Below are positions 1 to 13,135 of a DNA stretch of 13,188 nt, piece by piece; position 1 is the stretch's first letter; each line of letters begins with the position of its first letter. Under the pieces are notes generated by a model, which was given only the letters and a program-made list of their open reading frames with translations, had not been told where the DNA came from and did not search any database. The stretch covers positions 1 through 13,188 of the forward strand of contig CAYMPL010000054.1 in NCBI GenBank assembly GCA_964392415.1, given 5' to 3'. The position numbers were made by a program, and so were the translations under genes. The DNA comes from an uncultured bacterium (lineage in GTDB: Bacteria; Bdellovibrionota; JACOXK01; 2-02-FULL-40-11).

Positions 1-72
1 AAGGGATTAGATGATGTCATTGATCATTCCATTTCAAAAATGGTGAATCCCTATAAATGGAGGAAAGCATGA
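1..72 (+). CDS. 3' end of an upstream gene truncated by the window edge (product unknown; plausibly another gvp operon member)
   Basis: Frame 1 is open from base 1 and reads ...KGLDDVIDHSISKMVNPYKWRKA, ending at TGA 70-72. That stop overlaps the ATG at 69 of the next gene in an ATGA arrangement, the usual signature of translational coupling. Confidence 0.4.
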   Translation, partial: KGLDDVIDHSISKMVNPYKWRKA

Positions 73-830
73 GGCAAGCGCTTTACGTATATTGCGTTGT
101 ATGGTCACCTAATAAGCCTGTGAAGTTTGAAGCGAAAGGGATTTCAGGAAAACAAGTGTATCCTGTTTATTATAAAGATTTAGCGCTCATTATTCATGAA
201 TGTAATCCCATTCCTTATTCTTCCAAAGATCCAAAAAAAGTTTCTGAATGGGTCAAAAAGCATGGTCAAATTATTGATGAAGTATGGGACACTTTCGGCA
301 ACGTTTTGCCCTTTTCATTTAATACCATTATTAAAGAAACCTCCAAACAAAGTGCCTTTGATAATGCGATTTCATGGTTAGAAGAAAAGCATGGGGTGAT
401 TATTCAAAAGATGCGTGAACTAGACTCCCAAGCTGAATTTGGAGTCCAAATTTATTGGGATCGAAAACGAGCGTGCGATAGTTTACTTAAAAACGAGCCC
501 ACTCTTTTAAATCTTCAAAAAGAAATGGCAGAAAAAGGAGAAGGGGCAAAATTTCTCTTTCAAGAAAAATTAGAGAAAGAGCTTCGTCAGCTTTTGGAAA
601 AAGAGGGTTTAAAGTGGACAGATGAATTCTTAAATAAAATTAAAGGGGTTGTTTCTCAATTTAAAATAGAAAAATCAAAAGAAGAAGGGATGATTTTAAA
701 CCTTTCTTGTTTAACGGGTAAGGAAAAATCAGAGCTGGGTGAAGTTTTAGAAGAAATTAAAAATTTGGAAGAATTCCAAGTTCGATTTACAGGGCCTTGG
801 CCTCCTTATAGTTTTTCAAGTTTGGCATGA
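69..830 (+). CDS. gvpF: Gas vesicle protein GvpF/GvpL family. The ORF track starts at 57, but GGAGG at 59-63 is a Shine-Dalgarno sequence for the ATG at 69.
   Basis: The N-terminus LYVYCVV resembles the LY(L/V)YG(I/V)V start typical of GvpF/L. The C-terminal FTGPWPPYSF matches the conserved GPWPPYSF tail of GvpF/L proteins. Length is ~253 aa. GGAGG lies 6 nt upstream of the ATG at 69, and that ATG overlaps the stop of the upstream ORF. Confidence 0.8.
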   Translation: MRQALYVYCVVWSPNKPVKFEAKGISGKQVYPVYYKDLALIIHECNPIPYSSKDPKKVSEWVKKHGQIIDEVWDTFGNVLPFSFNTIIKETSKQSAFDNAISWLEEKHGVIIQKMRELDSQAEFGVQIYWDRKRACDSLLKNEPTLLNLQKEMAEKGEGAKFLFQEKLEKELRQLLEKEGLKWTDEFLNKIKGVVSQFKIEKSKEEGMILNLSCLTGKEKSELGEVLEEIKNLEEFQVRFTGPWPPYSFSSLA

Positions 831-837
831 AGCTTAT

Positions 838-1065
838 ATGAAAGCTACACGTGGTCAAAAACATACGCTTGTCGATTTATTGGATCGAGTTTTAGATCGA
901 GGAGTGATCTTACATGCCGATTTGATTATCTCGGTTTCAGGGATTCCTTTAGTAGGAGTAAGTCTTAAAGCCGCTATCGCTGGCATAGAGACGATGCTTC
1001 AATATGGATATTTTAAAGAGTGGGATCAAGAAATTCGTGAGATAGAAAATAAGAAAACAACATGA
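838..1065 (+). CDS. GvpA/GvpJ/GvpM-family gas vesicle structural protein (small and hydrophobic), more J/M-like than a major GvpA
   Basis: LVDLLDRVLDRGVILHADLIISVSGIPLVGVSLKAAIAGIETMLQYG aligns by eye to the GvpA core ([47 protein letters not shown]). It is 75 aa with a charged C-terminal extension. The stop overlaps the next start in an ATGA arrangement at 1062-1065. Confidence 0.8.
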   Translation: MKATRGQKHTLVDLLDRVLDRGVILHADLIISVSGIPLVGVSLKAAIAGIETMLQYGYFKEWDQEIREIENKKTT

Positions 1066-1454
1066 TTAAAAGTGTGCTTGATCTTCAACGCAAACTTAAA
1101 AAAAGTTCTAAAACTATTTTAGAGCCTCATGAAGAAATTGTTGTAAGCTCAAGTGCGAGTTTTGATGTGGGAGCTTCACTTCATCCCCATTGGAAATTTT
1201 GTAATGTTGTTCTAACCCCTCAAAGATTGGTGTGCTACCAGGTACATCGGATTTTAGCTTCAATTCCCATCGAAAATATTTTGTCTTTTGAAATTGAAAA
1301 AAGAGAATGGATTTTAGGTAAAAAAGTAAAGCAGCTTCGGATCACCTCAAGCGGAAATAAACTGATTTACCTGGCGGTTCGAGATCCTGAAAAATGGATA
1401 TCGTGCGTTGAATATTTAAAAAACAAAAGTGAGAAGATGGCATGTCAAAAATAG
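1062..1454 (+). CDS. Hypothetical protein, possible bacterial PH/GRAM-like fold, translationally coupled inside the gvp operon
   Basis: 130 aa. It overlaps the upstream gene by ATGA and the downstream hsp70 start by 13 nt. The pattern FCNVVLTPQRLVCYQ ... ASIPIENILSFEIEK ... KQLRITSSGNKLIYLAV ... EKWISCVEYL resembles the beta-strand/IPxxxI/C-terminal W-helix layout of bPH/GRAM domains. No motif of a named Gvp protein was recognised. Confidence 0.6.
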   Translation: MIKSVLDLQRKLKKSSKTILEPHEEIVVSSSASFDVGASLHPHWKFCNVVLTPQRLVCYQVHRILASIPIENILSFEIEKREWILGKKVKQLRITSSGNKLIYLAVRDPEKWISCVEYLKNKSEKMACQK

Positions 1455-3199
1455 TGGGCATTGATCTTGGAACTACGAATAGTCTTATTGCCATTGTCAA
1501 AAATGGAAAGCCTCTGGTGATTTCAGATATCGATGGGGCTCTCTTAATTCCTTCGGTTGTGGGATATTCCCCTTCTGATCGAATGCTGGTAGGGAAAGAG
1601 GCCAAGGATCAAAGAATTCTTTATCCCCAAAAAACCATTTATTCGATTAAAAGGAGAATGGGTGAAAAAGTGCGTATTTCACTGGGGAGCCATGAATTTA
1701 CTCCAGAAGAGATTTCTTCTTTTATCTTAAAAAAGCTAAAAGATAATGCCGAACGATTTTTATCTGAAAAAATAGAAAAAGCGGTTATTACCGTTCCTGC
1801 CTACTTTGATGACAGACAACGTCAAGCCACAAAAAAAGCAGGGGAGTTAGCTGGGCTTGAAGTCGTTCGAATTATTAACGAGCCTACGGCTTCTTCTTTG
1901 GCCTATGGGCTGGATCGCGACCCATCTCCTCATACCGTGATGGTTTGGGATTTAGGGGGCGGAACCTTTGATGTTTCCATTCTTGAAATTGGAAATGGGG
2001 TTTTTGAAGTGAAAGCTACTTCTGGTGACACCCATTTAGGAGGAGATGATTGGGACGAAAGATTATTTTCTTATTTGGAAGAAAAGATAGGTAAAGAATT
2101 TGGAAAGGATGTCCTTTCGAATCCCTCCCTTCGAGCAAGACTTTTGGTGAGTTGTGAAAAGACCAAATGTCTTCTTTCAAAAGAAGAAAAGGCAGTCATC
2201 AATCAACCGATTTCATGTGAAGGGGAAAAATATTTTAAAAATTTTAAATATGAAATCACAAGACAAGAATTTGAAGATCTAACAAAAGATCTTTTTGAAA
2301 GACTTCTTCTCCCGACGAAACGAGCGCTATCTGATGCCAAGCTTTTTCCAACAGATATTGATCGGATTATTATGGTGGGTGGATCTTCCCGAATGCCAAA
2401 AGTAAGAGAGCTTGCTCAAAAAGCGATGGGAAAAATTCCCTATACAGAAGTAAACCCCGATGAAGTTGTGGCCTTAGGGGCCGCCCTTCAGGCAGCTATT
2501 ATTTCTCAAGAAATGACAGGAATGGTACTTTTAGATGTGACTCCCCTTTCTTTGGGTATTGAAACTCAAGGAGGGATTTTTACAAAGGTGATTGATCGAA
2601 ATACGCCTATTCCCACCTCTCAAAGTAAGATTTTTACAACGGCCGAAGATAATCAAACGACTTTTGACATTCATATTCTTCAAGGGGAAAGAGAGATTGC
2701 CGTCTATAATCAATCTTTGGGAAAGTTTACTTTAGAAAATATGAGTCCAGCTCCAAAGGGAGAAGTCAAAACAGAGGTTGTTTTTACCATTGATATCAAT
2801 GGAATTCTTCATGTATCTGCTCAAGATCTTCAAACGGGGGAAGAAAGAAAACTCAGTTTAAAAACACTGAAAGATATTACAGAACAAGAAATAGAATTTA
2901 TTCTATCAGAAGCCAAACGCTATGTGTCTCAAGATCAAAAAGAAAAAAATTTAAAGGAACTTTGTATCAAGGCGGAAAGCCTTATTTATGCAACAGAAAA
3001 AATGATTGAAGATTTAAGGGGAAAGTTACCATCCAATTTTATTGAAGAGGCCAGAACACTTATTTCTTCTTTGAAACAAACGCTTCTCAATGCCTCAAAT
3101 GATAGAGAAATTGAACAAAAGGTTTTAGATTTAAGAGAAAAAGTAAATACGGCTTATGAAGGATATCGAAAACAAGAATTAAAATCTCATCATGCATAA
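1442..3199 (+). CDS. Hsp70-family chaperone, a short DnaK/HscC-like paralog, embedded in the gas-vesicle operon
   Basis: The N-terminus has IVGIDLGTTNSLIAIV (the phosphate-1 motif of DnaK IIGIDLGTTNSCVAV). DLGGGTFDVSIL, IIMVGGSSRMPKV and the linker-plus-SBD start VLLDVTPLSLGIETQGGIFT are all present. The protein is 585 aa, so the lid/C-terminal tail is shortened with no GGMP/EEVD-like tail. The start overlaps the upstream ORF. Confidence 0.9.
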   Translation: MSKIVGIDLGTTNSLIAIVKNGKPLVISDIDGALLIPSVVGYSPSDRMLVGKEAKDQRILYPQKTIYSIKRRMGEKVRISLGSHEFTPEEISSFILKKLKDNAERFLSEKIEKAVITVPAYFDDRQRQATKKAGELAGLEVVRIINEPTASSLAYGLDRDPSPHTVMVWDLGGGTFDVSILEIGNGVFEVKATSGDTHLGGDDWDERLFSYLEEKIGKEFGKDVLSNPSLRARLLVSCEKTKCLLSKEEKAVINQPISCEGEKYFKNFKYEITRQEFEDLTKDLFERLLLPTKRALSDAKLFPTDIDRIIMVGGSSRMPKVRELAQKAMGKIPYTEVNPDEVVALGAALQAAIISQEMTGMVLLDVTPLSLGIETQGGIFTKVIDRNTPIPTSQSKIFTTAEDNQTTFDIHILQGEREIAVYNQSLGKFTLENMSPAPKGEVKTEVVFTIDINGILHVSAQDLQTGEERKLSLKTLKDITEQEIEFILSEAKRYVSQDQKEKNLKELCIKAESLIYATEKMIEDLRGKLPSNFIEEARTLISSLKQTLLNASNDREIEQKVLDLREKVNTAYEGYRKQELKSHHA

Positions 3200-3217
3200 C
3201 ATATTGAAAATACTAGG

Positions 3218-3312
3218 TGCAATAGCCGCAGATTTTACCGCTTTTCGTTTGAGGAATTTTCTTTTGGTTTTGATTTATTATTGAAAACGTTAAATGTATT
3301 TTTTGAAGACGA
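3218..3312. repeat. Direct repeat copy A (~95 bp, imperfect). Its reverse complement encodes a decayed copy of the C-terminal tail and stop of the PGPGW gene.
   Basis: 3220-3290 aligns to 4745-4815 with about 5 mismatches in 71 nt, and the shared core gtattttttgaa follows. The reverse complement translates LSSSSKNTFNVFNNKSKPKENSSNEKR*, against GSLSKNTLRAFNNKLKPKENASNEKR* at the end of the 4760..5041 gene. Confidence 0.75.
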
Positions 3313-3349
3313 ACTGAGAACTGCACATTTTTAGATGAAATATTATTGC

Positions 3350-3377
3350 TTGACTCTTCATATTTATATATTATCAT
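3350..3377 (+). promoter_or_regulatory. Sigma70-like promoter for the ATPase gene; the transcript is probably leaderless
   Basis: TTGACT at 3350-3355, a 16-nt spacer, then TATCAT at 3372-3377. The ATG at 3386 lies ~8 nt downstream of the -10 and there is no Shine-Dalgarno sequence upstream, consistent with a leaderless mRNA. Confidence 0.45.
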
Positions 3378-3385
3378 AAATAGTA

Positions 3386-4702
3386 ATGAGGATTTTTATA
3401 AATCAAAAATTATCAAGTAATATTAATGAGTTATTAGAAGATCCATCCGTAGCTGAAGCCATTAAAATCTGGGGTAAAGATGATATAATAGCAAAATCCG
3501 CAATTGATTTAAGTATTTTTAGAACCCCTTTTGGATCCATTTCACTGCTATATGGCCCCAGGCAAATTGGAAAAACAGCAACCTTAAAACTCTTTCTGAC
3601 ACAGGTCCAGGATTCAGAAACGCTCATCTTTACGGACTGCTCTACCATTTTGGATAAAGCGGATCTTGCTCAACATCTTTCAGGACTGATTCAGGGACCT
3701 ACTACGATTGTCTTGGATGAAGTTCAGGAAGTCAACGATTGGCATTTAGCGCTGCGTTCGATGTTTTCGGAAGGAAAGTTAAAAAACTGTCGCATTTGGT
3801 GCACTGGAAGTGAGGCACGTTATCTACTTGAAAGTGGAGAAAGGCTCCCTGGACGAAAGGGAGAAGGAAAAACCATCTTTGCTCGTCCTTGGAGCTTTCG
3901 GGAGTATATGGATTTTTTTTACATCCATGAGACAGCTCCATTTCGATCTCTTTCCTTTAAGCACATCAATCAAAATTGGCTCAATGACCAGAAGATAGAT
4001 TGGTCTAAATATTGGTCTTCGTATCTTTTATCGGGTGGCATCCCTCATGCCGTTGCCTCTTGGATCAACCATGGTAAAATTCCGGATTCGATATGGCATG
4101 TTTATGCAGATTGGATTTTGGGGACATGGTCTCGTGTTCGTACACCCCAACGTTCATTGGCAGCTCTGGCTCGTAGAATTTGTGATACGCTCAATACACG
4201 TGTAAGCTATGAATCTCTAAAAAAGGGAACAGATATTCAAAGCGCCAATACGATTAAAACACTCATCGATTTTCAAGAAGATCATTTTTCGCTTCATTTG
4301 CTTGCTCGTTTTGATACACAAAAAGAGAAATATCTTCCGTCTAAATTAAAAAAAATATATCCCATTGATCCGTTTATTGCGCGTATTTGGACAGCGATTG
4401 GATGGAACATTAGAAGAATTTACGAAGAATCTGTTCCTGAATTAAAATTGGATGAATGTGCTTTTTTGACTCAAATGTTTCGAAAAGAAGATTCTTTGCC
4501 CATTAGCTATCTTTATAGTGATCGCAGTAAATCTGAAATTGATTTTTATTTTGAAGAATGTGGTTTTGAACTCAAATCAAATGGCAATCCAACTCAACAT
4601 CAAAAAGAACTTTTAAAAACATGTCCTCAATCCTTTATCATCAAAAAAGAAAAGCTTCCTCTCATGGCGTATCTAGTTGGAGAGGGAAGAACATCATATT
4701 GA
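3386..4702 (+). CDS. AAA+ ATPase of the AAA_14/DUF4143 (COG1373-like) family with a C-terminal PD-(D/E)xK-like region
   Basis: Walker A LLYGPRQIGKTATLK. Walker B TIVLDEVQEV. C-terminal SEIDFYFEECGFELK carries a D...ExK pattern typical of the restriction-endonuclease-like domain fused in this family. 438 aa. The gene is flanked by the ~95-bp direct repeats. Confidence 0.8.
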   Translation: MRIFINQKLSSNINELLEDPSVAEAIKIWGKDDIIAKSAIDLSIFRTPFGSISLLYGPRQIGKTATLKLFLTQVQDSETLIFTDCSTILDKADLAQHLSGLIQGPTTIVLDEVQEVNDWHLALRSMFSEGKLKNCRIWCTGSEARYLLESGERLPGRKGEGKTIFARPWSFREYMDFFYIHETAPFRSLSFKHINQNWLNDQKIDWSKYWSSYLLSGGIPHAVASWINHGKIPDSIWHVYADWILGTWSRVRTPQRSLAALARRICDTLNTRVSYESLKKGTDIQSANTIKTLIDFQEDHFSLHLLARFDTQKEKYLPSKLKKIYPIDPFIARIWTAIGWNIRRIYEESVPELKLDECAFLTQMFRKEDSLPISYLYSDRSKSEIDFYFEECGFELKSNGNPTQHQKELLKTCPQSFIIKKEKLPLMAYLVGEGRTSY

Positions 4703-4838: not shown

Positions 4839-5041
4839 CCGGCTTTGTCTTTGAATTTTTTGAGGAGGATGCGTGCCCAGATAAATTCCGTTGCCAGAAG
4901 CACAAGCCCTATGAGCATGACCACTATGCCAGGACCTGGGGTAAAGAACATGACGGCGCCTATCAGAACAATCGTACTTCCAATAAGAAAGATGAATATG
5001 CGTTTGAGCGTTTTATAGGTCATTTTGGCGAGTTCGAACAT
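4760..5041 (-). CDS. Small membrane protein with a PGPGW-type motif. The ORF track extends to 5089 with a TTG; the probable start is the ATG at 5039-5041 (MFELAK...).
   Basis: Two predicted TM helices flank FFTPGPGIVVMLIGLVLL, the motif of the putative transmembrane PGPGW family. GGAAG lies ~8 nt upstream of the 5041 ATG. The gene converges on the ATPase gene. Confidence 0.6.
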   Translation of the reverse strand: MFELAKMTYKTLKRIFIFLIGSTIVLIGAVMFFTPGPGIVVMLIGLVLLATEFIWARILLKKFKDKAGSLSKNTLRAFNNKLKPKENASNEKR

Positions 5042-5165
5042 TTGGAATCTTCCCAGTGATTTTATAGACAAAGCGGCGTTATTTTTCAAGAATAAAATCG
5101 GAATGACACTTTAAAAATTTTAATCCATCTTTATCAAACCTTAACAGACAAACGCTATGTATGAC

Positions 5166-5186
5166 CCATTTCCTTCAAGGAAATGG
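5166..5186. promoter_or_regulatory. Perfect 8-bp inverted repeat (CCATTTCC ttcaa GGAAATGG) immediately upstream of the pstS ribosome-binding site
   Basis: Read directly from the sequence. It sits about 15 nt upstream of the AAGGAG Shine-Dalgarno sequence of pstS. It could be a regulator binding site or a 5'-UTR hairpin. Confidence 0.35.
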
Positions 5187-5215
5187 AATTGCGCATTATG
5201 AAAAGGAGACAAACA

Positions 5216-6202
5216 ATGAAAAAGCGAATGGCGCTCATTGCTGGAATATTTACGGTTATCTTAAAAACAAGCTTTGCGCCGCATGCGGCGGCAGATCCGA
5301 CGATTGTCAAAGTGGATGGATCAAGCACGGTATATCCGATCACTGAGGCAGTTGCAGAGGAATTTCAGAAACAAAAAAAGGGGGTTCAGGTGACGGTTGG
5401 AATTTCCGGAACGGGAGGAGGATTTAAAAAGTTTTGCAGGGGGGAAACCGATGTTCAGGATGCTTCCCGCCCTATTCTTGAAGCGGAAATGAAGGTTTGC
5501 AAAGAGAACAACATCAAGTATGTTGAACTCCCGATTGCCTACGATGCTATTACAGTAGTGGTAAGTTCAAAAAATACGTGGGTTAAAAATATAACTGTTT
5601 CAGATCTTAAAAAGATCTGGGAGCCGGATGCCCAGGGAAAAATTCTAAAATGGAATCAGGTGCGGCCCGAATGGCCAAATTCCCAGATTAAATTGTTTGG
5701 CGCCGGTTCTGATTCCGGGACGTTTGATTACTTCACCGAAGCGATCGTTGGAAAATCAAAATCGAGTCGGGGGGATTACACGAGCAGTGAAGATGATAAT
5801 ACCCTTGTTACAGGTGTGAGCACCGATAAACATGCGTTAGGATATATCCCGTTTTCCTATTATGCCGCGAATACGAAACGCCTAAAGGCATTGAGTGTGG
5901 AGGGAATATTCCCCTCAGCAGCCACCATTGACGCAGGCGCTTATACGCCGCTTTCCCGGCCTATCTTTATTTATGTGAATTTGAAGGCGGTTGAAAGGGC
6001 CGAAGTAAAAGAGTTCTCAGAGTTTTATTTAAAGCAAGCCGCTCTTTTGGCGAAGCAGGTCAAATATGTCCCGCTGCCAGCCCCTCTATATGCGCAGGCG
6101 CTCAAAAATTTTCAAAAGAGAAAATTGGGAACTGCCTTTGGGGGGAAGCCTGAAGTGGGAATAAAAGTTGGGGAGCTCCTAAAGCGTGGGTCCAAATACT
6201 GA
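5216..6202 (+). CDS. pstS: Phosphate ABC transporter substrate-binding protein PstS. The ORF track starts at 5183, but AAGGAG at 5203-5208 supports the ATG at 5216.
   Basis: The signal peptide is MKKRMALIAGIFTVILKTSFAPHAAADP. Motifs of the PBP-like_2 PstS family are present (SSTVYPITEA, GISGTGGGFKKF). The gene is first in a pstSCAB-phoU operon. Confidence 0.85.
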   Translation: MKKRMALIAGIFTVILKTSFAPHAAADPTIVKVDGSSTVYPITEAVAEEFQKQKKGVQVTVGISGTGGGFKKFCRGETDVQDASRPILEAEMKVCKENNIKYVELPIAYDAITVVVSSKNTWVKNITVSDLKKIWEPDAQGKILKWNQVRPEWPNSQIKLFGAGSDSGTFDYFTEAIVGKSKSSRGDYTSSEDDNTLVTGVSTDKHALGYIPFSYYAANTKRLKALSVEGIFPSAATIDAGAYTPLSRPIFIYVNLKAVERAEVKEFSEFYLKQAALLAKQVKYVPLPAPLYAQALKNFQKRKLGTAFGGKPEVGIKVGELLKRGSKY

Positions 6203-7133
6203 AACGCCGGTTCAGGAAGTGTGGTTCCCTGAATCAAATATTATTATCAAGAGGCAGTGGCGGAATCTCAAAGAGGGGACTATCAGTGTTGTCTTATTCT
6301 GTGCGGCATTCTGTTCGATTTTCATTACGCTTGGGATTATTGGGATTCTCATCTTTGAATCGATCCCCTTTTTTAAAGCGGTTCCACTCAAAGAATTTTT
6401 AACGGATACGCAGTGGACTCCTCTTTTTGCTCAGGCTCATTACGGCATCTGGCCGCTGATTTCAGGAACTCTTGTGACAACCTCGGTTGCCCTTTGTGTC
6501 GCCCTTCCTTTGGGGACAGCGATTGCGATTTATCTCAGCGAATACGCCGGGGGGCGCTTTCGCGAAACGATCAAGCCTGTTTTGGAACTCTTGAGCGCTG
6601 TGCCGACGGTTGTTTATGGTTACTTTGCCCTGTTATTTGTTACGCCGCTGCTTCAGGGAATCATGCCATCCCTTTCCGGATTTAATATGCTCAGCGCGGG
6701 GTTGGTGATGGGGATTATGATTATTCCTTATGTCAGTTCCCTCTGTGAAGACGCCATGCGGGCGGTTCCGATGTCTCTTCGCGAAGGATCTTATGCGATG
6801 GGAGCGACCCGTTTGCAAACCTCTTTACGGGTCATTTTCCCCGCTGCGTTTTCCGGGATTACGGCCGCCTATATTTTGGCGATTTCACGTGCTGTGGGGG
6901 AGACGATGATTGTTGCAATTGCCGCTGGCATGCAGGCGAGATTAACCTGGAATCCGCTCGAGCCTGCTGAAACGATTACGGCCTATATCGTGCAGGTCAG
7001 TTTGGGAGATCTGCCCCATGGGAGTATTGGCTATCAGACTATTTTTGTTGCGGGATTAACCTTATTTTTGATCACCTTTTTATTTAATATGGTCGGCTAT
7101 TTTCTCAAACGACGCTATCGTGAGGTTTATTAG
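6186..7133 (+). CDS. pstC: Phosphate ABC transporter permease PstC. The ORF track puts a GTG start at 6186, overlapping the pstS end; the exact start is uncertain.
   Basis: It is a multi-TM permease with the ABC type-1 EAA-like loop SRAVGETMIVAIAAG. It is the first of the two permease genes after pstS. Confidence 0.85.
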   Translation: MGPNTETPVQEVWFPESNIIIKRQWRNLKEGTISVVLFCAAFCSIFITLGIIGILIFESIPFFKAVPLKEFLTDTQWTPLFAQAHYGIWPLISGTLVTTSVALCVALPLGTAIAIYLSEYAGGRFRETIKPVLELLSAVPTVVYGYFALLFVTPLLQGIMPSLSGFNMLSAGLVMGIMIIPYVSSLCEDAMRAVPMSLREGSYAMGATRLQTSLRVIFPAAFSGITAAYILAISRAVGETMIVAIAAGMQARLTWNPLEPAETITAYIVQVSLGDLPHGSIGYQTIFVAGLTLFLITFLFNMVGYFLKRRYREVY

Positions 7134-8023
7134 TGACTCGCTCAAAGAGATATGATCTTCTTTTTTCATTCTTTAGTCTCTCAGCGCTCTGTTTGGCGCT
7201 CGCAACCCTTCTTGCATTGATGATGGCTCTCATGATCGAAGGGCTTCCGCGCATGAGCGGCTCTTTTTTGACCTCTTTCCCCTCGCGTTTTGCCGATCAG
7301 GCAGGAATTCTTTCAGCATGGGTGGGGACGCTGTCGGTTATGACGGTGACCGCCCTGACCGCTATTCCTCTGGGTGTCGCCGCTGGTCTTTATCTTGAAG
7401 AGTATGCGCCAAAAAATTTTTTAACCGCTTTTATTGAAATGAATATTTCGAATCTTGCGGGGGTTCCATCGATCGTCTATGGCTTGATGGCTCTGGGCAT
7501 ATTTGTTTACAAATTTCAGTTTGGTCAGAGCATTTTAACGGCAGGTCTCACATTGGCGCTTCTCATTCTTCCGATTATTATTGTAACGACACGGGAAACG
7601 ATTCGGGCTATCCCGCTGATGATCCGGGAGGGGGCCTATGCGCTGGGCGCCACGCGCTGGCAGATGGTCAAAGATCACATTCTCCCTTATTCGACGGGAG
7701 GAATCTTGACAGGGGTTATTATCGCGCTCTCTCGCGCGATCGCTGAGACGGCACCGCTCATTACCATTGGGGCTTTGACTTTTATAGCATTTTTGCCGCA
7801 CTCCCCATTTCAAAGCGGTTTTCCTTTTATTTCGTTTGAGTGGCTGAAAGATCCCTTTACCGTTCTTCCGATTCAGATGTTTAACTGGATCTCCCGTCCT
7901 CAAGAAGAGTTCCATCAGAATGCGGCTGCGGCTGGGATTGTTCTTGTTGCCCTTACTTTGATGATGAACGGTTTGGCTATTTATGTGAGATATCGATTCC
8001 GGAAAAGGATCAAATGGGCATGA
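7133..8023 (+). CDS. pstA: Phosphate ABC transporter permease PstA
   Basis: The GTG start at 7133 overlaps the pstC stop TAG at 7131-7133, with GAGG 7 nt upstream. It is a multi-TM permease with the loop [16 protein letters not shown], and is the second permease gene of the operon. Confidence 0.85.
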
Positions 8024-8781
8024 ACGAGAAAGCAGAGGTCAAAAATTTAAGCTTTTTTTATGGGGATGTAAAAGCGTTGGATTCTATTTCTGTTCCTATC
8101 TACAAAAATAGAATCACAGCGATGATCGGGCCTTCCGGATGCGGAAAGACGACCCTGCTTCGCTGCTTCAACCGCCTGCACGATCTTTATCCAGGCAATC
8201 GTTATGAAGGGGAGATTGTTTTATTCCCGGAGAATATCGATATTTTAAAAAAAGAAGTCGATCTGGTGGGACTTCGAATGCGAATCAGCATGGTTTTTCA
8301 AAAGCCAAATCCGTTCCCAAAATCAATTTATGAAAATGTCGCCTATGGCTTGCGTGTCAGAGGGATGAAGAATTCTTATTTCATCGGTGAAAAAGTTGAA
8401 GAGTCTTTGAAAAACGCGGCTCTCTGGGAGGAAGTTAAAGATCGCCTCTATGACCAGGCTTATCAGCTTTCAGGAGGGCAGCAGCAGCGGCTCTGTATCG
8501 CTCGCGCGCTGGCAACCGATCCGGAAATTGTTCTTTTTGATGAACCGACATCCGCGCTGGATCCCATTGCCACTCAAAAGATTGAGGAGCTGATTCATAG
8601 CCTGAAAGAACACTATACGGTGATTATTGTGACGCACAATATGCAGCAGGCTGCCCGGGTTTCTGATTTTACCGCTTTTTTTTATTTGGGCGAATTGATA
8701 GAGTTTGAGAAGACGGCAATTTTATTTACCAATCCAAAAGTAAAGAAAACAGAAGAGTATATTACAGGAAGGTTTGGATAA
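8014..8781 (+). CDS. pstB: Phosphate import ATP-binding protein PstB
   Basis: Walker [13 protein letters not shown] signature LSGGQQQRL. Walker [14 protein letters not shown]-loop VTHNM. The start overlaps the pstA end. Confidence 0.95.
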
Positions 8782-9468
8782 ATGACGCTTGCGCAGAAAT
8801 CGTTTGAAAGAGATCTTCAGGAAATCCAGGAAGAGCTTATTATGATGGGGGGAATGGTTGAAAAGGCGATTTCAACCTCTATTCTTGCTCTAAAGGATTT
8901 AAATGCGCGCCTCGCAAAAGAGGTGATTCGCTATGACAAAACGATTGATGAGCAGGAGCTAAAGATTGAAGACCTCTGTATCAAATACATTGCGCTGCAG
9001 CAGCCGAAAGCGACAGATCTCCGTTTTATTACCTCCGCCATGAAAATCAATAATGAACTCGAAAGAATGGGGGATTACGCGGAGAGCATTGCGCGGCAAG
9101 CTCTTTTTCTTTCTTCGAAACCGCCGTTAAAACCCTTGGTGAACATTCCACTGATGTCTGAACGCGTTCAGGCAATGGTGAAAGATTGTCTGACTGCCTT
9201 TTTAAAGAAGGATCAAGCTTTGGCGCACGATGTGATTCATCGGGATCATGCTGTCGATGAATTGCAAACGAGGATTTATAAGAACCTTCTTGGCGATATG
9301 ATTCGCGATCCAAATGCGATTGAAAGGGCGAGTTCATTGCTATTGGTTTCAACGCGGCTTGAGAGAATTGCCGATCAGGCGACCAATGTCTGCGAAGATG
9401 TCATTTATCTCGTCACCGGTGTGACCGTAAGACACAGAGACAAATTGAAGTTGGACGAGTCATCTTAA
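8782..9468 (+). CDS. phoU: Phosphate signalling complex protein PhoU
   Basis: 228 aa, two-repeat helical PhoU architecture (E(x)LxxMG..V.. / ..RIADxATNV). The ATG sits immediately after the pstB stop with a GGAAGG Shine-Dalgarno sequence. It is the canonical last gene of the pst operon. Confidence 0.9.
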   Translation: MTLAQKSFERDLQEIQEELIMMGGMVEKAISTSILALKDLNARLAKEVIRYDKTIDEQELKIEDLCIKYIALQQPKATDLRFITSAMKINNELERMGDYAESIARQALFLSSKPPLKPLVNIPLMSERVQAMVKDCLTAFLKKDQALAHDVIHRDHAVDELQTRIYKNLLGDMIRDPNAIERASSLLLVSTRLERIADQATNVCEDVIYLVTGVTVRHRDKLKLDESS

Positions 9469-11217
9469 GGGGAGTCTCAAGGTAAAGCTGGTTCCTTTGC
9501 CTGGGGAGCTTTCTACATCTACCGTTCCTTCATGAAGAAGGGCGACATGTTTAACAATGGCAAGTCCAAGCCCGGTTCCACCCCATTCGCGGTCTCGTCC
9601 CCGATCGACGCGATAAAATCGCTCAAAAATCCGGGGAAGATGTTCAGAGCTGATTCCGATGCCCGTATCTTTTATAGTCATTTTAATTTCTTTCTCTGTT
9701 TTTAGAGCTTCGATCTGAATTTTGCCGCCAGGGGGGGTGTATTTCGCGGCATTGTCGAGCAGATTCACAAATGCCTGCTCTAATTTGGTTTCATCAGCGG
9801 TCAGTTCATCGATTTTAATTTTTGTTTCTAAGGAAATATTTTTCTTTTCTGCCGCCGGCTTCATTTTGGAAATAATGTGATTGATAAATACGTGAAAATC
9901 AAATTTCTTTGCGCGCAATTGGTCATTAGATTCAAGGGATTCAAGCTCGGACAATGTCAAAAGATCATCCACAAGAGCCGTTAAGCGATCGACGTTATTT
10001 TTAATAATGGCTGCAAATTTAGAGCTGTTTTCGCGATCATCCAACCCCCCCTGGAGAAGCGTGTCGGTATATCCTCGAATAGAGGTGAGAGGGGTCTTAA
10101 ATTCATGTGAAACGTTTGCCACAAAATCGACCCGCATCTGTTCCACCCGTTTAAGTCCGGTGATATCATGAAAAATCGAAACGACCCCAAAAATTTCCTC
10201 TCCTTTCAGGAAGAATGGGGAAACGATAACTTCATAATGTTTTTCTTCCGAGTGATTTACTATTTTAATTTGTTTTTGGTAAATTTTATGATCAGCAAGC
10301 GAGGCATCGATGAGCGTTGAAAGTTCGGGAATTCTTACGATCTCGAGGAGCCTTCTTCCCTGTAATTCTTTTTCCTGAATGTGAAAGATATCGCAAAAAC
10401 GCTGGTTATAAAGGATGAGGTTTTTATGAATATCGACAGTCAAAACTCCGTCGTAAATACTCGAAAGAATGGTTGAGAGTTTTAGCTTTTCCTGAGAGAT
10501 ATTTGAAATGGTTTGAGAGAGTTGATCTTTCATTGAATTGAGAGAACCTGCCAGGATGCCAAGTTCATCGGTTCTCGAAATGAAAAGTTTTTGAGAAAAA
10601 TCCCCTTCCGCGATTTTCTTTGAAAAGGCAGTCATTTCTTCAACGGGTTTGGTGATCAATTGAGTTATTTTAAAGCCGACAAAGAGAATTAAAATTCCTC
10701 CCATCAGAAATATGATGAATAAAATATGAGAGAAGCCGCTGAAACTCTCTCGGAGTGTTTTTAAAGGAAGCGCCACTCTCAAATAGCCGATGCCTTCAAT
10801 CTGTTTTGCGACATAGAGCATCTCTTTTTTAACGGTGTCGCTAAAACGGATGCTCAGGCCGAACAACTGATTTTCTGATGAGATAATTTCTGGGCGTTCC
10901 GAGTGATTATCCATCTTGCGGGGATCGGCGTCAGAATCTCCCAGAACAGAGCCATTTTTTTGAATGAATGTGATTCGGAAAGAGAGGATTTTCCCATATT
11001 TTTTACAGAAACGGTCCGGTCTTTTTTTTGCCCATGGCGTATCTTTAAAGGAATGTTCCAGTTGAAGCAGGTGTTTTTTTAAAAAAAGCTCTACCTGCTC
11101 GATGTGCTCTTTTCTTAAGGCATGGGTTCCATACCATCCTATGGCAATTGCTGTCACAAGGAGCGAAGCCGAAAAAATCAGAAATATCTTTGAAAACAAA
11201 CGCTTTTTAAACTTCAT
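9460..11217 (-). CDS. phoR: Phosphate regulon sensor histidine kinase PhoR-like (TM - periplasmic loop - TM - HAMP - PAS - HisKA - HATPase)
   Basis: Two TM segments flank a ~130 aa extracytoplasmic region. The HAMP region is TKPVEEMTAFSKKIAEGDF...GSLNSMKD. The H-box is VANVSHEFKTPLTSIRGY. The G-boxes are DTGIGI and GGTGLGLAIVKHV. The ATG overlaps the phoB stop in an ATGA arrangement. The 3' end overlaps the phoU 3' end by 9 bp, convergently. Confidence 0.85.
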   Translation of the reverse strand: MKFKKRLFSKIFLIFSASLLVTAIAIGWYGTHALRKEHIEQVELFLKKHLLQLEHSFKDTPWAKKRPDRFCKKYGKILSFRITFIQKNGSVLGDSDADPRKMDNHSERPEIISSENQLFGLSIRFSDTVKKEMLYVAKQIEGIGYLRVALPLKTLRESFSGFSHILFIIFLMGGILILFVGFKITQLITKPVEEMTAFSKKIAEGDFSQKLFISRTDELGILAGSLNSMKDQLSQTISNISQEKLKLSTILSSIYDGVLTVDIHKNLILYNQRFCDIFHIQEKELQGRRLLEIVRIPELSTLIDASLADHKIYQKQIKIVNHSEEKHYEVIVSPFFLKGEEIFGVVSIFHDITGLKRVEQMRVDFVANVSHEFKTPLTSIRGYTDTLLQGGLDDRENSSKFAAIIKNNVDRLTALVDDLLTLSELESLESNDQLRAKKFDFHVFINHIISKMKPAAEKKNISLETKIKIDELTADETKLEQAFVNLLDNAAKYTPPGGKIQIEALKTEKEIKMTIKDTGIGISSEHLPRIFERFYRVDRGRDREWGGTGLGLAIVKHVALLHEGTVDVESSPGKGTSFTLRLPLR

Positions 11218-11906
11218 TCATCCCGGAATCGGTATCCTATACCACGGATCGTCTCGATATAGATATCCCCCCCGCCTAATTTTTTTCTCAAGGATTGAAT
11301 ATGCACATCAATGGTCCGGTCGATGACAATGGTTTCGCCGCCTGTGACTTCATCAAGGAGGCGATCTCTGGTAAGGACGCGCCCCTGGTTTTCAATGAGG
11401 GCTTTTAGGATTTTAAACTCTGTCAGCGTCAATTTGATCTCTTTTTTATTCATATAAATTTTATGCCGGGCCCAATGAATGCGAAGAGAGGCATACCTAA
11501 ATTCTTGTTCGGTGACTGACCGCGAAGATGTTCTTCTTAGAATCGCCTTAATTCTTGCCACGATTTCAGAGATATCAAATGGTTTGGCGACATAATCGTC
11601 CGCTCCCAGCTGCAATCCCTTAACCATATCTTCTTTAGCGGATTTTGCGGTGAGAATGAGGATTGCAATGTCTTTTGTTTTTGGATTTGATTTGATTTTA
11701 TTACAAAATTCAAGGCCGGACATCTTGGGGAGCATAATATCCAAAATAATGAGGAGCGGGTTTTCTTCTTCAAGCCAAAGCAGCGCTTCTTCGGCGGATC
11801 TTACCTGTTTTACCGGGAAAAATTCTTTTTTCAGATGATATGAAAGAAGTTCTCCAATATCTTTTTCGTCCTCAACAATTAGGATCTTTTTTGCTTTTAG
11901 TTCCAT
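11214..11906 (-). CDS. phoB: OmpR/PhoB-family response regulator, probable PhoB. The ORF track extends to a TTG at 11915; the ATG at 11906 gives MELKAKKILIVEDE.
   Basis: The receiver domain has the conserved D in ILDIMLP and the K in AKP. The C-terminal winged helix is TLTEFKILKALIENQGRVLTRDRLLDEV...GYRF. It is co-oriented with and coupled to phoR, and lies next to the pst operon. Confidence 0.85.
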   Translation of the reverse strand: MELKAKKILIVEDEKDIGELLSYHLKKEFFPVKQVRSAEEALLWLEEENPLLIILDIMLPKMSGLEFCNKIKSNPKTKDIAILILTAKSAKEDMVKGLQLGADDYVAKPFDISEIVARIKAILRRTSSRSVTEQEFRYASLRIHWARHKIYMNKKEIKLTLTEFKILKALIENQGRVLTRDRLLDEVTGGETIVIDRTIDVHIQSLRKKLGGGDIYIETIRGIGYRFRDE

Positions 11907-11937
11907 AGACGACAAGTTATATGAGGATAGTTAAAAT

Positions 11938-12058: not shown

Positions 12059-13135
12059 ATGAAGTTTCACAAATTCTGTTTTTTCTTTTTTTTCTATCTG
12101 TCGGTAGTCGGATACGGCGAGGACCGTCAGCATCATTTTTTGTCTCAAGGCGAAAGCATCCATCTGATTGAAATGGGTTTTGTCTCTGCGAATGTAAAAG
12201 CCCGGATTGAGTGGGTTGCTGAAACCAGAAAGGATCAGGAAATTATTTATCATCCCCGAAAGAAGAAAGTTTCAAGTCGCGATGTGGAATTGAGGGATCA
12301 TCTGTTGTATTTTCGTCGGCCCGGCGAATATTTGGTTGAATTCATCAGGGAAGATCAAACGAAAGAGATCCGGATAATAAAAGTCGTCCCAAATCAGGAC
12401 TCTGGCATAGGTACTTTTGGAGATCCTTTTAAAGATATTCATCTCTATGCGTTTCGTGATGCATTTTATAAAACGATTTTTCATCTTGAGCTTCGATTTG
12501 TCCGAAAAGGGGATTGGGGATCGCGGCTGCCCCCCCCTCCCAATGTATCGTGGGAAATCAGCGGCGGCAGGCACCACGTTTTGGATGATGAACTCCCCTA
12601 TTTTTCAAAAATCAGGGCATTTCAAAAGAGTGTTGTCTTGAAGGAATTTGGATCTTATGAAGCAAAAGCCTATGTGAGTCTGTCAGATGGAGGAGTTCTT
12701 GAAAGAAGTGTGACGATTAATCTTCAACCAGAGGCGAGCAATACGCCGTTGTTGGCCACAGATACGCAATTACTTTCTTTTCCCATAAATAAACCAGTGC
12801 GTGTTTTTGTTCAAAATAGTTTGTCGAACGAGAGATATCAATATGCATGGCGTGTCAAAGCCGTTCACCATCCAGAGTGTCTACAAGAATGGCTTGAGTT
12901 GGAGGATGCGGACAATTTTTCTGTAAGAGGAATTCTTCATTATATATGCGACAACGGTTATGAAGAAGAACTGGTTGCAGAGAGAGATTACTTACTTTCG
13001 AAACAAGACATACATAAAGCAGAATTTCTATTTAAGAATCCCGGAAGGTATGAGGTGGGACTTCTTTTGTTTGATTCTATCGGGCAAATCTATTCATCGA
13101 GTTCCAAAAGAATAATGCTATATCGGCGGGATTAA
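12059..13135 (+). CDS. Hypothetical secreted or periplasmic protein (358 aa) with an N-terminal signal peptide; no recognisable domain
   Basis: The long ORF has a hydrophobic N-terminus MKFHKFCFFFFFYLSVVGYG. It is divergent from phoB and shares the Pho-box-like region. Internal T8 and C8 homopolymer tracts were read directly from the sequence. Confidence 0.65.
   Translation: MKFHKFCFFFFFYLSVVGYGEDRQHHFLSQGESIHLIEMGFVSANVKARIEWVAETRKDQEIIYHPRKKKVSSRDVELRDHLLYFRRPGEYLVEFIREDQTKEIRIIKVVPNQDSGIGTFGDPFKDIHLYAFRDAFYKTIFHLELRFVRKGDWGSRLPPPPNVSWEISGGRHHVLDDELPYFSKIRAFQKSVVLKEFGSYEAKAYVSLSDGGVLERSVTINLQPEASNTPLLATDTQLLSFPINKPVRVFVQNSLSNERYQYAWRVKAVHHPECLQEWLELEDADNFSVRGILHYICDNGYEEELVAERDYLLSKQDIHKAEFLFKNPGRYEVGLLLFDSIGQIYSSSSKRIMLYRRD

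Follow-up and report, generated by a model that had tools for sequence, protein, structure and literature searches.

The window analyzed here is a complete metagenome-assembled contig of 13,188 nt (CAYMPL010000054.1, from an uncultured bacterium of the Bdellovibrionota), and its region of interest, positions 1-3199, is the distal end of a predicted gas-vesicle (gvp) operon, gvpK(3' end)-gvpL-gvpM-X-hsp70, with all genes on the plus strand. The Hsp70 encoded by the last gene is probably a specialized, fast-evolving part of the gvp cluster and not a housekeeping DnaK that lies there by accident. Gene content and sequence make it likely that clusters of this type encode a chaperone system of Hsp70 and J-protein dedicated to the hydrophobic shell proteins of gas vesicles, in which the small PH-fold protein X would serve as an adaptor. 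Pieces identical to the window are present in two ENA assemblies from Hainich groundwater well H51; related contigs and loci are referred to below by L and P numbers.

The distal end of a predicted gas-vesicle operon

Five co-directional open reading frames (ORFs), all intact, lie within positions 1-3199 and are followed by a spacer:

1-72, plus strand: 3' end of gvpK, the last 23 codons and the stop; the contig starts inside the gene
69-830, plus strand: gvpL/gvpF-family gene, 253 aa, with an alternative in-frame ATG at 57
838-1065, plus strand: gvpM-like gene, 75 aa, GvpA/J/M family (Pfam Gas_vesicle)
1062-1454, plus strand: gene X, 130 aa, a stand-alone PH-like domain protein and proposed adaptor
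1442-3199, plus strand: Hsp70 gene (Pfam HSP70), 585 aa, the last of the operon
3200-3385, no strand: AT-rich spacer at the operon end, where synteny among relatives stops

A reading of the letters made without database searches, here called the sequence-only reading, had claimed four tightly coupled genes with overlaps at 69, 1062, and 1442, and the junctions are confirmed from the sequence. The gvpK stop TGA (70-72) overlaps the gvpL ATG (69-71) as ATGA. As a GGAGG lies a few bases 5' of position 69, this is the likely start of the gene rather than 57, and in the independent assembly L002 the public annotation of gvpL also starts at 69. A 7-nt gap (831-837) separates gvpL from gvpM, gvpM and X share a second ATGA overlap (1062-1065), and X and the Hsp70 gene overlap by 13 nt (1442-1454); the same 13 nt overlap in relatives L003 and L006, and 4 nt in L014. 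The gene after Hsp70 differs in each of three related contigs (the window, L003, and L006), and the Hsp70 gene is therefore taken as the operon's last. No terminator was found 3' of it by a simple scan; a candidate promoter-like site lies at 3350-3377, ahead of the next gene.

The same reading had assigned 69-830 to the GvpF/L family and 838-1065 to the GvpA/J/M family, and Pfam searches place both accordingly. The product of the former, counted from 57 or 69, matches GvpL_GvpF (PF06386; E = 6.2e-51) over profile positions 1-244 of 245, and that of the latter matches Gas_vesicle (PF00741; E = 1.2e-14, 54.6 bits against a cut-off of 25). The best NCBIfam models sharpen the assignments to GvpL (156 bits, not reaching the cut-off of 200) and GvpM (96.8 bits, not reaching 109, and above GvpJ and GvpA). 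The window GvpM shares 53-59% identity with the N-terminal domain of GvpM-PH fusions in other phyla.

The proposal that the operon runs further upstream stands for the gene at the contig edge and for related contigs, and the single flank recovered adds nothing to it. Translated, positions 1-72 are identical to the C terminus of the complete 104-aa GvpK (PF05121) of L003, a close relative in which the order is ArsA-like, GvpJ, GvpK, GvpL/F, GvpM, X, Hsp70. L008 also carries ArsA-like, gvpJ, and gvpK genes upstream, together with gvpG, gvpF, a GvpF-J-domain fusion, and a Cdc48-like ATPase, and neither GvpA nor GvpN was seen in 10 kb upstream of L008. The J-K-L-M gene order is that of haloarchaeal gvpJKLM. 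Exact look-ups of the flank itself yield L002 alone, which adds 394 nt and no further gvp genes. There (L002:1-300), the match to gvpK ends ~100 nt before the window start and is followed by a minus-strand ORF fragment, with the N-terminal half of gvpK gone; this 62-aa GvpK version matches Pfam GvpK at E = 0.0011, under the curated cut-off. Because coverage is only ~4x, the upstream part of L002 is probably a chimeric join; otherwise it would be a real truncation of the cluster.

The Hsp70 and its relatives in other gas-vesicle clusters

The product of 1442-3199 matches Pfam HSP70 (PF00012; E = 3.5e-194) over profile positions 1-595 of 599 and aligns to Geobacillus DnaK (2v7y) over residues 1-508 with no large gaps. 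Its architecture is full, comprising nucleotide-binding domain (NBD), linker, substrate-binding domain, and lid, and it retains the phosphate-binding, NEPTA, and DLGGGTFD motifs and the VLLDVTPLSLG interdomain linker. With these catalytic motifs and the linker kept, the protein looks functional and J-protein-responsive. Identification as HscA (TIGR01991, 553 bits, under the 708 cut-off) or as EutJ (60 bits against a cut-off of 152) was rejected, as was a defense-system role for the Hsp70 or X, neither of which matches PADLOC.

That the gene is an ordinary housekeeping DnaK which merely adjoins the gvp operon is, in our judgment, highly improbable. Its nearest homologs (89%, 89%, and 68% identity) all have the same gene order, after which identity drops to about 50-53%, against DnaKs of many phyla. 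The window Hsp70 is 50.5% identical to canonical DnaKs, whereas the canonical set is ~70% identical among itself, and among the gvp-linked Hsp70s the median pairwise identity is 50%, compared with 70% within that set. Scored against DnaK models, the protein fails the TIGR02350 cut-off (676 bits; cut-off 822) and falls far under those of PRK13410 and PRK13411. Also at odds with a housekeeping gene are the 13-nt overlap with X, conserved in relatives, and the neighborhood, in that no grpE or canonical dnaJ is found in the window or beside the Hsp70 in L008-L016; no grpE was seen in the gvp-Hsp70 clusters in general. Like most of its gvp-linked relatives, the window protein is without an NBD insert of ~24 residues and is ~26 residues shorter at the C terminus. 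Short Hsp70s in the match list (572-606 aa) cluster apart from housekeeping DnaKs of 607-660 aa, and a neighbor-joining tree splits canonical DnaKs from gvp-linked/short Hsp70s in 156 of 200 bootstraps.

Several observations nevertheless favor a DnaK identity or loosen the separation of the gvp-linked group. The protein is full length with its motifs intact and scores above the PRK00290 cut-off (691 bits; cut-off 648), so that sequence alone would say DnaK; public annotations of metagenome-assembled genomes (MAGs) name gvp-linked Hsp70 genes simply DnaK. No other dnaK is visible within the 13 kb of genome covered. As the neighbor-joining tree has no outgroup, the placement outside canonical DnaKs is moderate evidence, and its canonical set is biased to the best matches of the query. 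Within it, an Anaerolineae and Chloroflexia subgroup of gvp-linked Hsp70s falls in with the canonical DnaKs in 43 of 200 bootstraps, and the ~24-aa NBD insert is present in some gvp-linked Hsp70s (L018, L027, L029, L031, L047, L090, L043, L046, and L071). In view of the insert and of this bootstrap placement, Hsp70 may have been recruited into gvp clusters more than once.

The adjacency of Hsp70 and gvp genes could have been peculiar to this strain, a possibility raised by the sequence-only reading; it recurs in many lineages. Of the short Hsp70s, six (572-605 aa) were taken from separate branches, and all six are encoded within gvp clusters (P0009, P0015, P0079, P0022, P0032, and P0084); they come from MAGs of Actinomycetota, Thermodesulfovibrionales, and Candidatus Edwardsbacteria and from three metagenome contigs. 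A genome scan for the GvpM-like domain, with one genome per species, gave >536 loci, of which the best 80 were surveyed with hidden Markov models; the window's own species was outside these best loci, for which the top identity was 66%. A same-strand Hsp70 occurs in 46 of the 80, mostly directly 3' of gvpK-gvpL-gvpM, and in 28 of the 36 loci with long flanks. Hosts of gvp-Hsp70 clusters include Dehalococcoidia, Anaerolineae, Desulfobacterota, Nitrospirota, Nitrospinae, Planctomycetota, and a few archaea. Gene order is thus conserved across phyla, which places the adjacency above chance, and the same arrangement in Actinomycetota, Nitrospirota, Chloroflexota, Desulfobacterota, and Planctomycetota speaks further against a housekeeping DnaK.

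The clusters in which these Hsp70s lie are, judged by gene content, complete gvp clusters with an added chaperone set. All core families (GvpA, N, F, G, J, K, L, M, and O) are represented, among them GvpA-sized genes of 68-74 aa and a GvpN-like ATPase of the AAA_5 family. The sequence-only reading had named GvpN as the dedicated ATPase of canonical gvp clusters; the Hsp70 does not take its place, as the two coexist. In one 'Proteobacteria' MAG (L039:10258-15724), the Hsp70 is cut to a 43-aa fragment after gvpM, and downstream lies a 990-aa ORF that by eye resembles a Tn3-type transposase; this locus would be a natural loss of Hsp70. Small genes of the 23S_rRNA_IVP and GIY-YIG families stand between gvp genes in four other, mutually unrelated clusters (L009:8210-8593, L011:451-864, L014:2582-2878, and L016:1347-1637), possibly as mobile or selfish elements that target gvp operons.

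These surveys also bear on the idea that the locus is a decaying gvp remnant or one unconnected with buoyancy, which either makes no vesicles now or builds another GvpA-type assembly served by the Hsp70. Pointing that way are the gvpK lacking its N-terminal half in L002, the transposase-like insertion at which L039 lost its Hsp70, and the hosts, which are largely groundwater and sediment anaerobes where vesicles have mostly not been observed; moreover, Streptomyces gvp clusters are not known to yield vesicles. We consider a remnant quite unlikely, since all five window ORFs are intact and tightly coupled, gvpJ-gvpK is intact upstream in the close relative L003, the truncation in L002 falls in a likely chimera, and related clusters hold the full core. 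In addition, a 23.5-kb Desulfobacteraceae cluster, from Desulfobacterium vacuolatum (FWXY01000008:1268-24724; Hurt et al.) and likened to the present clusters by size alone, gave vesicles in Escherichia coli (PMC10344784).

J-domain fusions, gene X, and a proposed chaperone system

Clusters of this type encode a GvpF paralog of 330-440 aa with a C-terminal J-domain that contains the HPD motif (for example, in L008, L013, and L016). The fusion is found in 44 of the 80 genome loci, with HPD in all, and occurs together with Hsp70 in 26 of the 36 long-flank loci. It is this fusion of a J-domain to a Gvp protein that backs the earlier suggestion of a dedicated chaperone. Five loci have the fusion and no Hsp70 (Bacillota, Prolixibacteraceae, Bacteroidales, and one with a transposase-like insertion) and presumably use the host DnaK; L070 carries an Hsp70 and a degenerate J-domain that has lost its HPD.

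Further chaperone-type parts recur in these clusters. A small protein that is little more than the DnaJ CXXCXGXG zinc finger is encoded at L011:5972-6367 (Pfam E = 6.7e-12), L009:3596-4810, and L013:4969-5337, and the parts of DnaJ thus seem to be spread over separate gvp proteins. L008 and most of L017-L096 encode such ATPases: one of the Cdc48 family (TIGR01243, 945 bits; L008:1628-3802) occurs in 42 of the 80 genome loci and a tandem one of the ArsA/Get3 family (481 bits; L008:6171-8168) in 36 of 80, each in most of the long-flank ones. Counting the GvpN-like AAA_5, there are up to four different ATPases per cluster, and the clusters hold Hsp20-domain proteins as well.

Gene X, which the sequence-only reading had left as a small unknown protein, encodes a PH-fold domain with gvp-linked relatives. 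No Pfam match was obtained for X at E <= 0.1, and its relatives hit only GRAM, Vps36, and bPH_3, all below threshold. The family is small, with 32 relatives in a profile search of 1.84 billion representative proteins. An AlphaFold2 model built from 26 sequences (predicted local distance difference test [pLDDT] score of 81), which replaced one from four near-identical sequences (pLDDT 58), has seven strands followed by a C-terminal helix and resembles PH domains; in this model X is a PH-like fold, a seven-stranded sandwich capped by the helix. The N-terminal PH domain of PH-PH-Hsp20 proteins shares 42% identity with X. In other phyla, GvpM is found in fusion proteins of 357-371 aa that combine a Gas_vesicle domain with two PH repeats and a zinc ribbon, and the first of these repeats shares 26% identity with X. 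Assignment of X to GvpH/Hsp20 was rejected, as it has no alpha-crystallin domain and corresponds to no more than the N-terminal PH domain of the PH-PH-Hsp20 proteins.

A scan of JGI metagenomes with close X homologs (alignment A1) gave no matches, and one with an intermediate alignment (A4) retrieved the PH-Hsp20 subfamily, not the lineage of the window. In the 80 JGI metagenome loci, the PH-Hsp20 protein lies directly 3' of gvpK-gvpL-gvpM, the slot that X and Hsp70 occupy in the window. On this comparison, the slot after gvpM always holds a PH module plus a chaperone, with the Hsp20 domain in the same protein or Hsp70 as the next gene. As X is translationally coupled to both gvpM and hsp70, and the PH domain is elsewhere fused to GvpM or to an Hsp20 domain, X is probably an adaptor that links a GvpM assembly site with the chaperone.

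The association of Hsp70 and J-domain genes with gvp clusters is observed directly, and from it we infer the following scheme, including its clients, its sequence of events, and the role of X as adaptor. A GvpF-J-domain fusion would be encoded farther upstream, beyond the end of this contig, as in L008. Its GvpF part would bind a hydrophobic GvpA-family shell protein, and its HPD would trigger ATP hydrolysis in the cluster Hsp70. The Hsp70 would then hold or release the aggregation-prone subunit, keeping it soluble for nucleation or for insertion into the growing vesicle, while X and the PH repeats on GvpM would tether a chaperone to the GvpM-containing assembly site. GvpF/L are thought to chaperone GvpA, and a 2024 structural review of gas vesicles lists how hydrophobic GvpA stays soluble and reaches the growing vesicle as unresolved (PMC10903477). 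Without assembly factors, GvpA is aggregation-prone and proteotoxic in E. coli, and where other hosts are made to produce vesicles as acoustic reporters, toxicity stems mainly from GvpA aggregation (PMC12848028). A need for chaperoning of the shell protein is plausible on these grounds.

The same parts could run in the opposite direction, with the Hsp70 and the Cdc48-like AAA+ unfoldase acting as a disaggregase that extracts or resolubilizes GvpA-family proteins for recycling, whether these sit in aggregates or in vesicles that have collapsed or are in surplus, and not as an assembly machine. Such a role, which differs from the proposed one in the direction of the reaction and not in dedication to gvp, draws on the frequency of the Cdc48-family gene (42 of 80 loci, and with Hsp70 in most long-flank ones). 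Pairing of Hsp70 with a hexameric AAA+ unfoldase is the established bi-chaperone design of ClpB/Hsp104. Mechanisms of gas-vesicle degradation are described as unexplored (PMC10903477). We regard recycling as unlikely. Coupling ties the Hsp70 gene to gvpL, gvpM, and X and not to the Cdc48 gene, which is found at another place in the cluster. The J-domain belongs to a fusion with GvpF, which the literature connects with the handling of GvpA in assembly, and Bacillota clusters have Cdc48 without Hsp70.

Against the proposed assembly chaperone system stand the following points. Its interactions are proposed from gene content and sequence, and the window has no J-domain gene, GvpA, or GvpN, all of which are extrapolated from relatives; the nearest of these with a large context, L008, has an Hsp70 just 68% identical. 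Co-occurrence of Hsp70 and the J-fusion is statistically weak (Fisher p = 0.06), because the fusion is nearly ubiquitous. Nor is Hsp70 universal, as the Bacillota and Prolixibacteraceae loci have the J-fusion and no Hsp70 in <=10 kb on each side, and only 1 of the 80 PH-Hsp20 loci from JGI metagenomes has an Hsp70.

Neighboring genes and relation to known systems

Beyond the operon, positions 3386-4702 (plus strand) encode a 438-aa AAA_14/DUF4143 ATPase that matches the PADLOC phage-defense candidate PDC-S01 (E = 2.9e-25). A phosphate-uptake operon, pstS, pstC, pstA, pstB, and phoU, follows at 5183-9468 (plus strand), and positions 9460-11915 (minus strand) hold a PhoR-like histidine kinase and a putative response-regulator ORF. 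The best named matches of the kinase are groundwater 'Deltaproteobacteria' MAGs (48-53% identity). The last ORF, at 12059-13135 (plus strand), encodes 358 aa with a hydrophobic N terminus and no PADLOC match. G+C content is 32-40% in the gvp/Hsp70 part (1-3500) and 43-50% in the phosphate-transport part (5000-9500); given this contrast with the adjacent operon, the gvp cluster could have been acquired horizontally.

Canonical gvp clusters (haloarchaeal gvpFGHIJKLM, cyanobacterial, and Bacillus megaterium) share with the clusters described here the core families GvpF/L, G, J, K, M, O, A, and N and the local J-K-L-M order, to which genes for a PH-fold protein and an Hsp70 are here added after gvpM. 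To judge by reviews, the model clusters are not known to have these two genes, nor the GvpF-J fusion, the Cdc48-like and ArsA/Get3-like ATPases, and the DnaJ zinc finger that the relatives of the window have. Castillo and Saier (2010) report ArsA and Hsp20 in gvp clusters, with no Hsp70, DnaK, or Cdc48 and with two unrelated uses of 'chaperone' (PMC2963123). Accessory genes of these ArsA and Hsp20/GvpH types recur in the related clusters; in contrast to the Hsp20/GvpH type, the post-gvpM slot in the window holds a PH domain and an Hsp70, which replace or join the PH-Hsp20 protein.

The 2024 review has no mention of Hsp70, DnaK, ArsA, or Hsp20 (PMC10903477), and for Desulfotignum phosphitoxidans, a gvp-carrying member of the Desulfobacteraceae, dnaK, dnaJ, and grpE are reported together with a separate Hsp70, with no connection drawn (PMC4046663). 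We found no link of Hsp70, J-domain, or Cdc48 to gvp clusters in the literature covered, most subscription journals being outside that coverage. A widespread variant of the gvp cluster with its own Hsp70/J-protein system has apparently gone undescribed.

Among Hsp70 systems, DnaK-DnaJ-GrpE is alike in architecture, catalytic motifs, the VLLDVTPLSLG linker, and an HPD J-partner. The window Hsp70 differs in being ~50% identical and C-terminally shorter, in having no grpE or dnaJ neighbors, and in being encoded in the operon of an organelle. DnaJ itself has a client-binding body, whereas in the related clusters the J-domain is carried by GvpF and the zinc finger is a separate small protein. HscA-HscB, which serves the iron-sulfur scaffold IscU, is alike in concept, as a specialized Hsp70 and J-protein encoded with the client pathway, and differs in that pathway and in J-protein architecture. 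EutJ, of the ethanolamine microcompartment operon, is also an Hsp70-superfamily protein in the operon of a protein-bounded organelle; it is an ATPase domain only, whereas the window protein is a complete Hsp70.

To the broadest form of this proposal we give roughly even chances, namely, that there is a large undescribed class of gvp clusters, mainly in anaerobic bacteria and in some archaea, with a folding machinery of its own consisting of Hsp70, GvpF-J, a split-off DnaJ zinc finger, PH adaptors fused to GvpM or Hsp20, a Cdc48-like unfoldase, and a Get3/ArsA-like ATPase. The parts of such clusters are candidates for better heterologous production of gas vesicles. If the J-fusion means what it appears to, GvpF would be a client-delivering co-chaperone for the gas-vesicle shell protein, and the way in which GvpA stays soluble and enters the vesicle wall would become directly testable. 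If the chaperone system is as proposed, it would be a second bacterial Hsp70/J pair encoded with one pathway, besides HscA/HscB.

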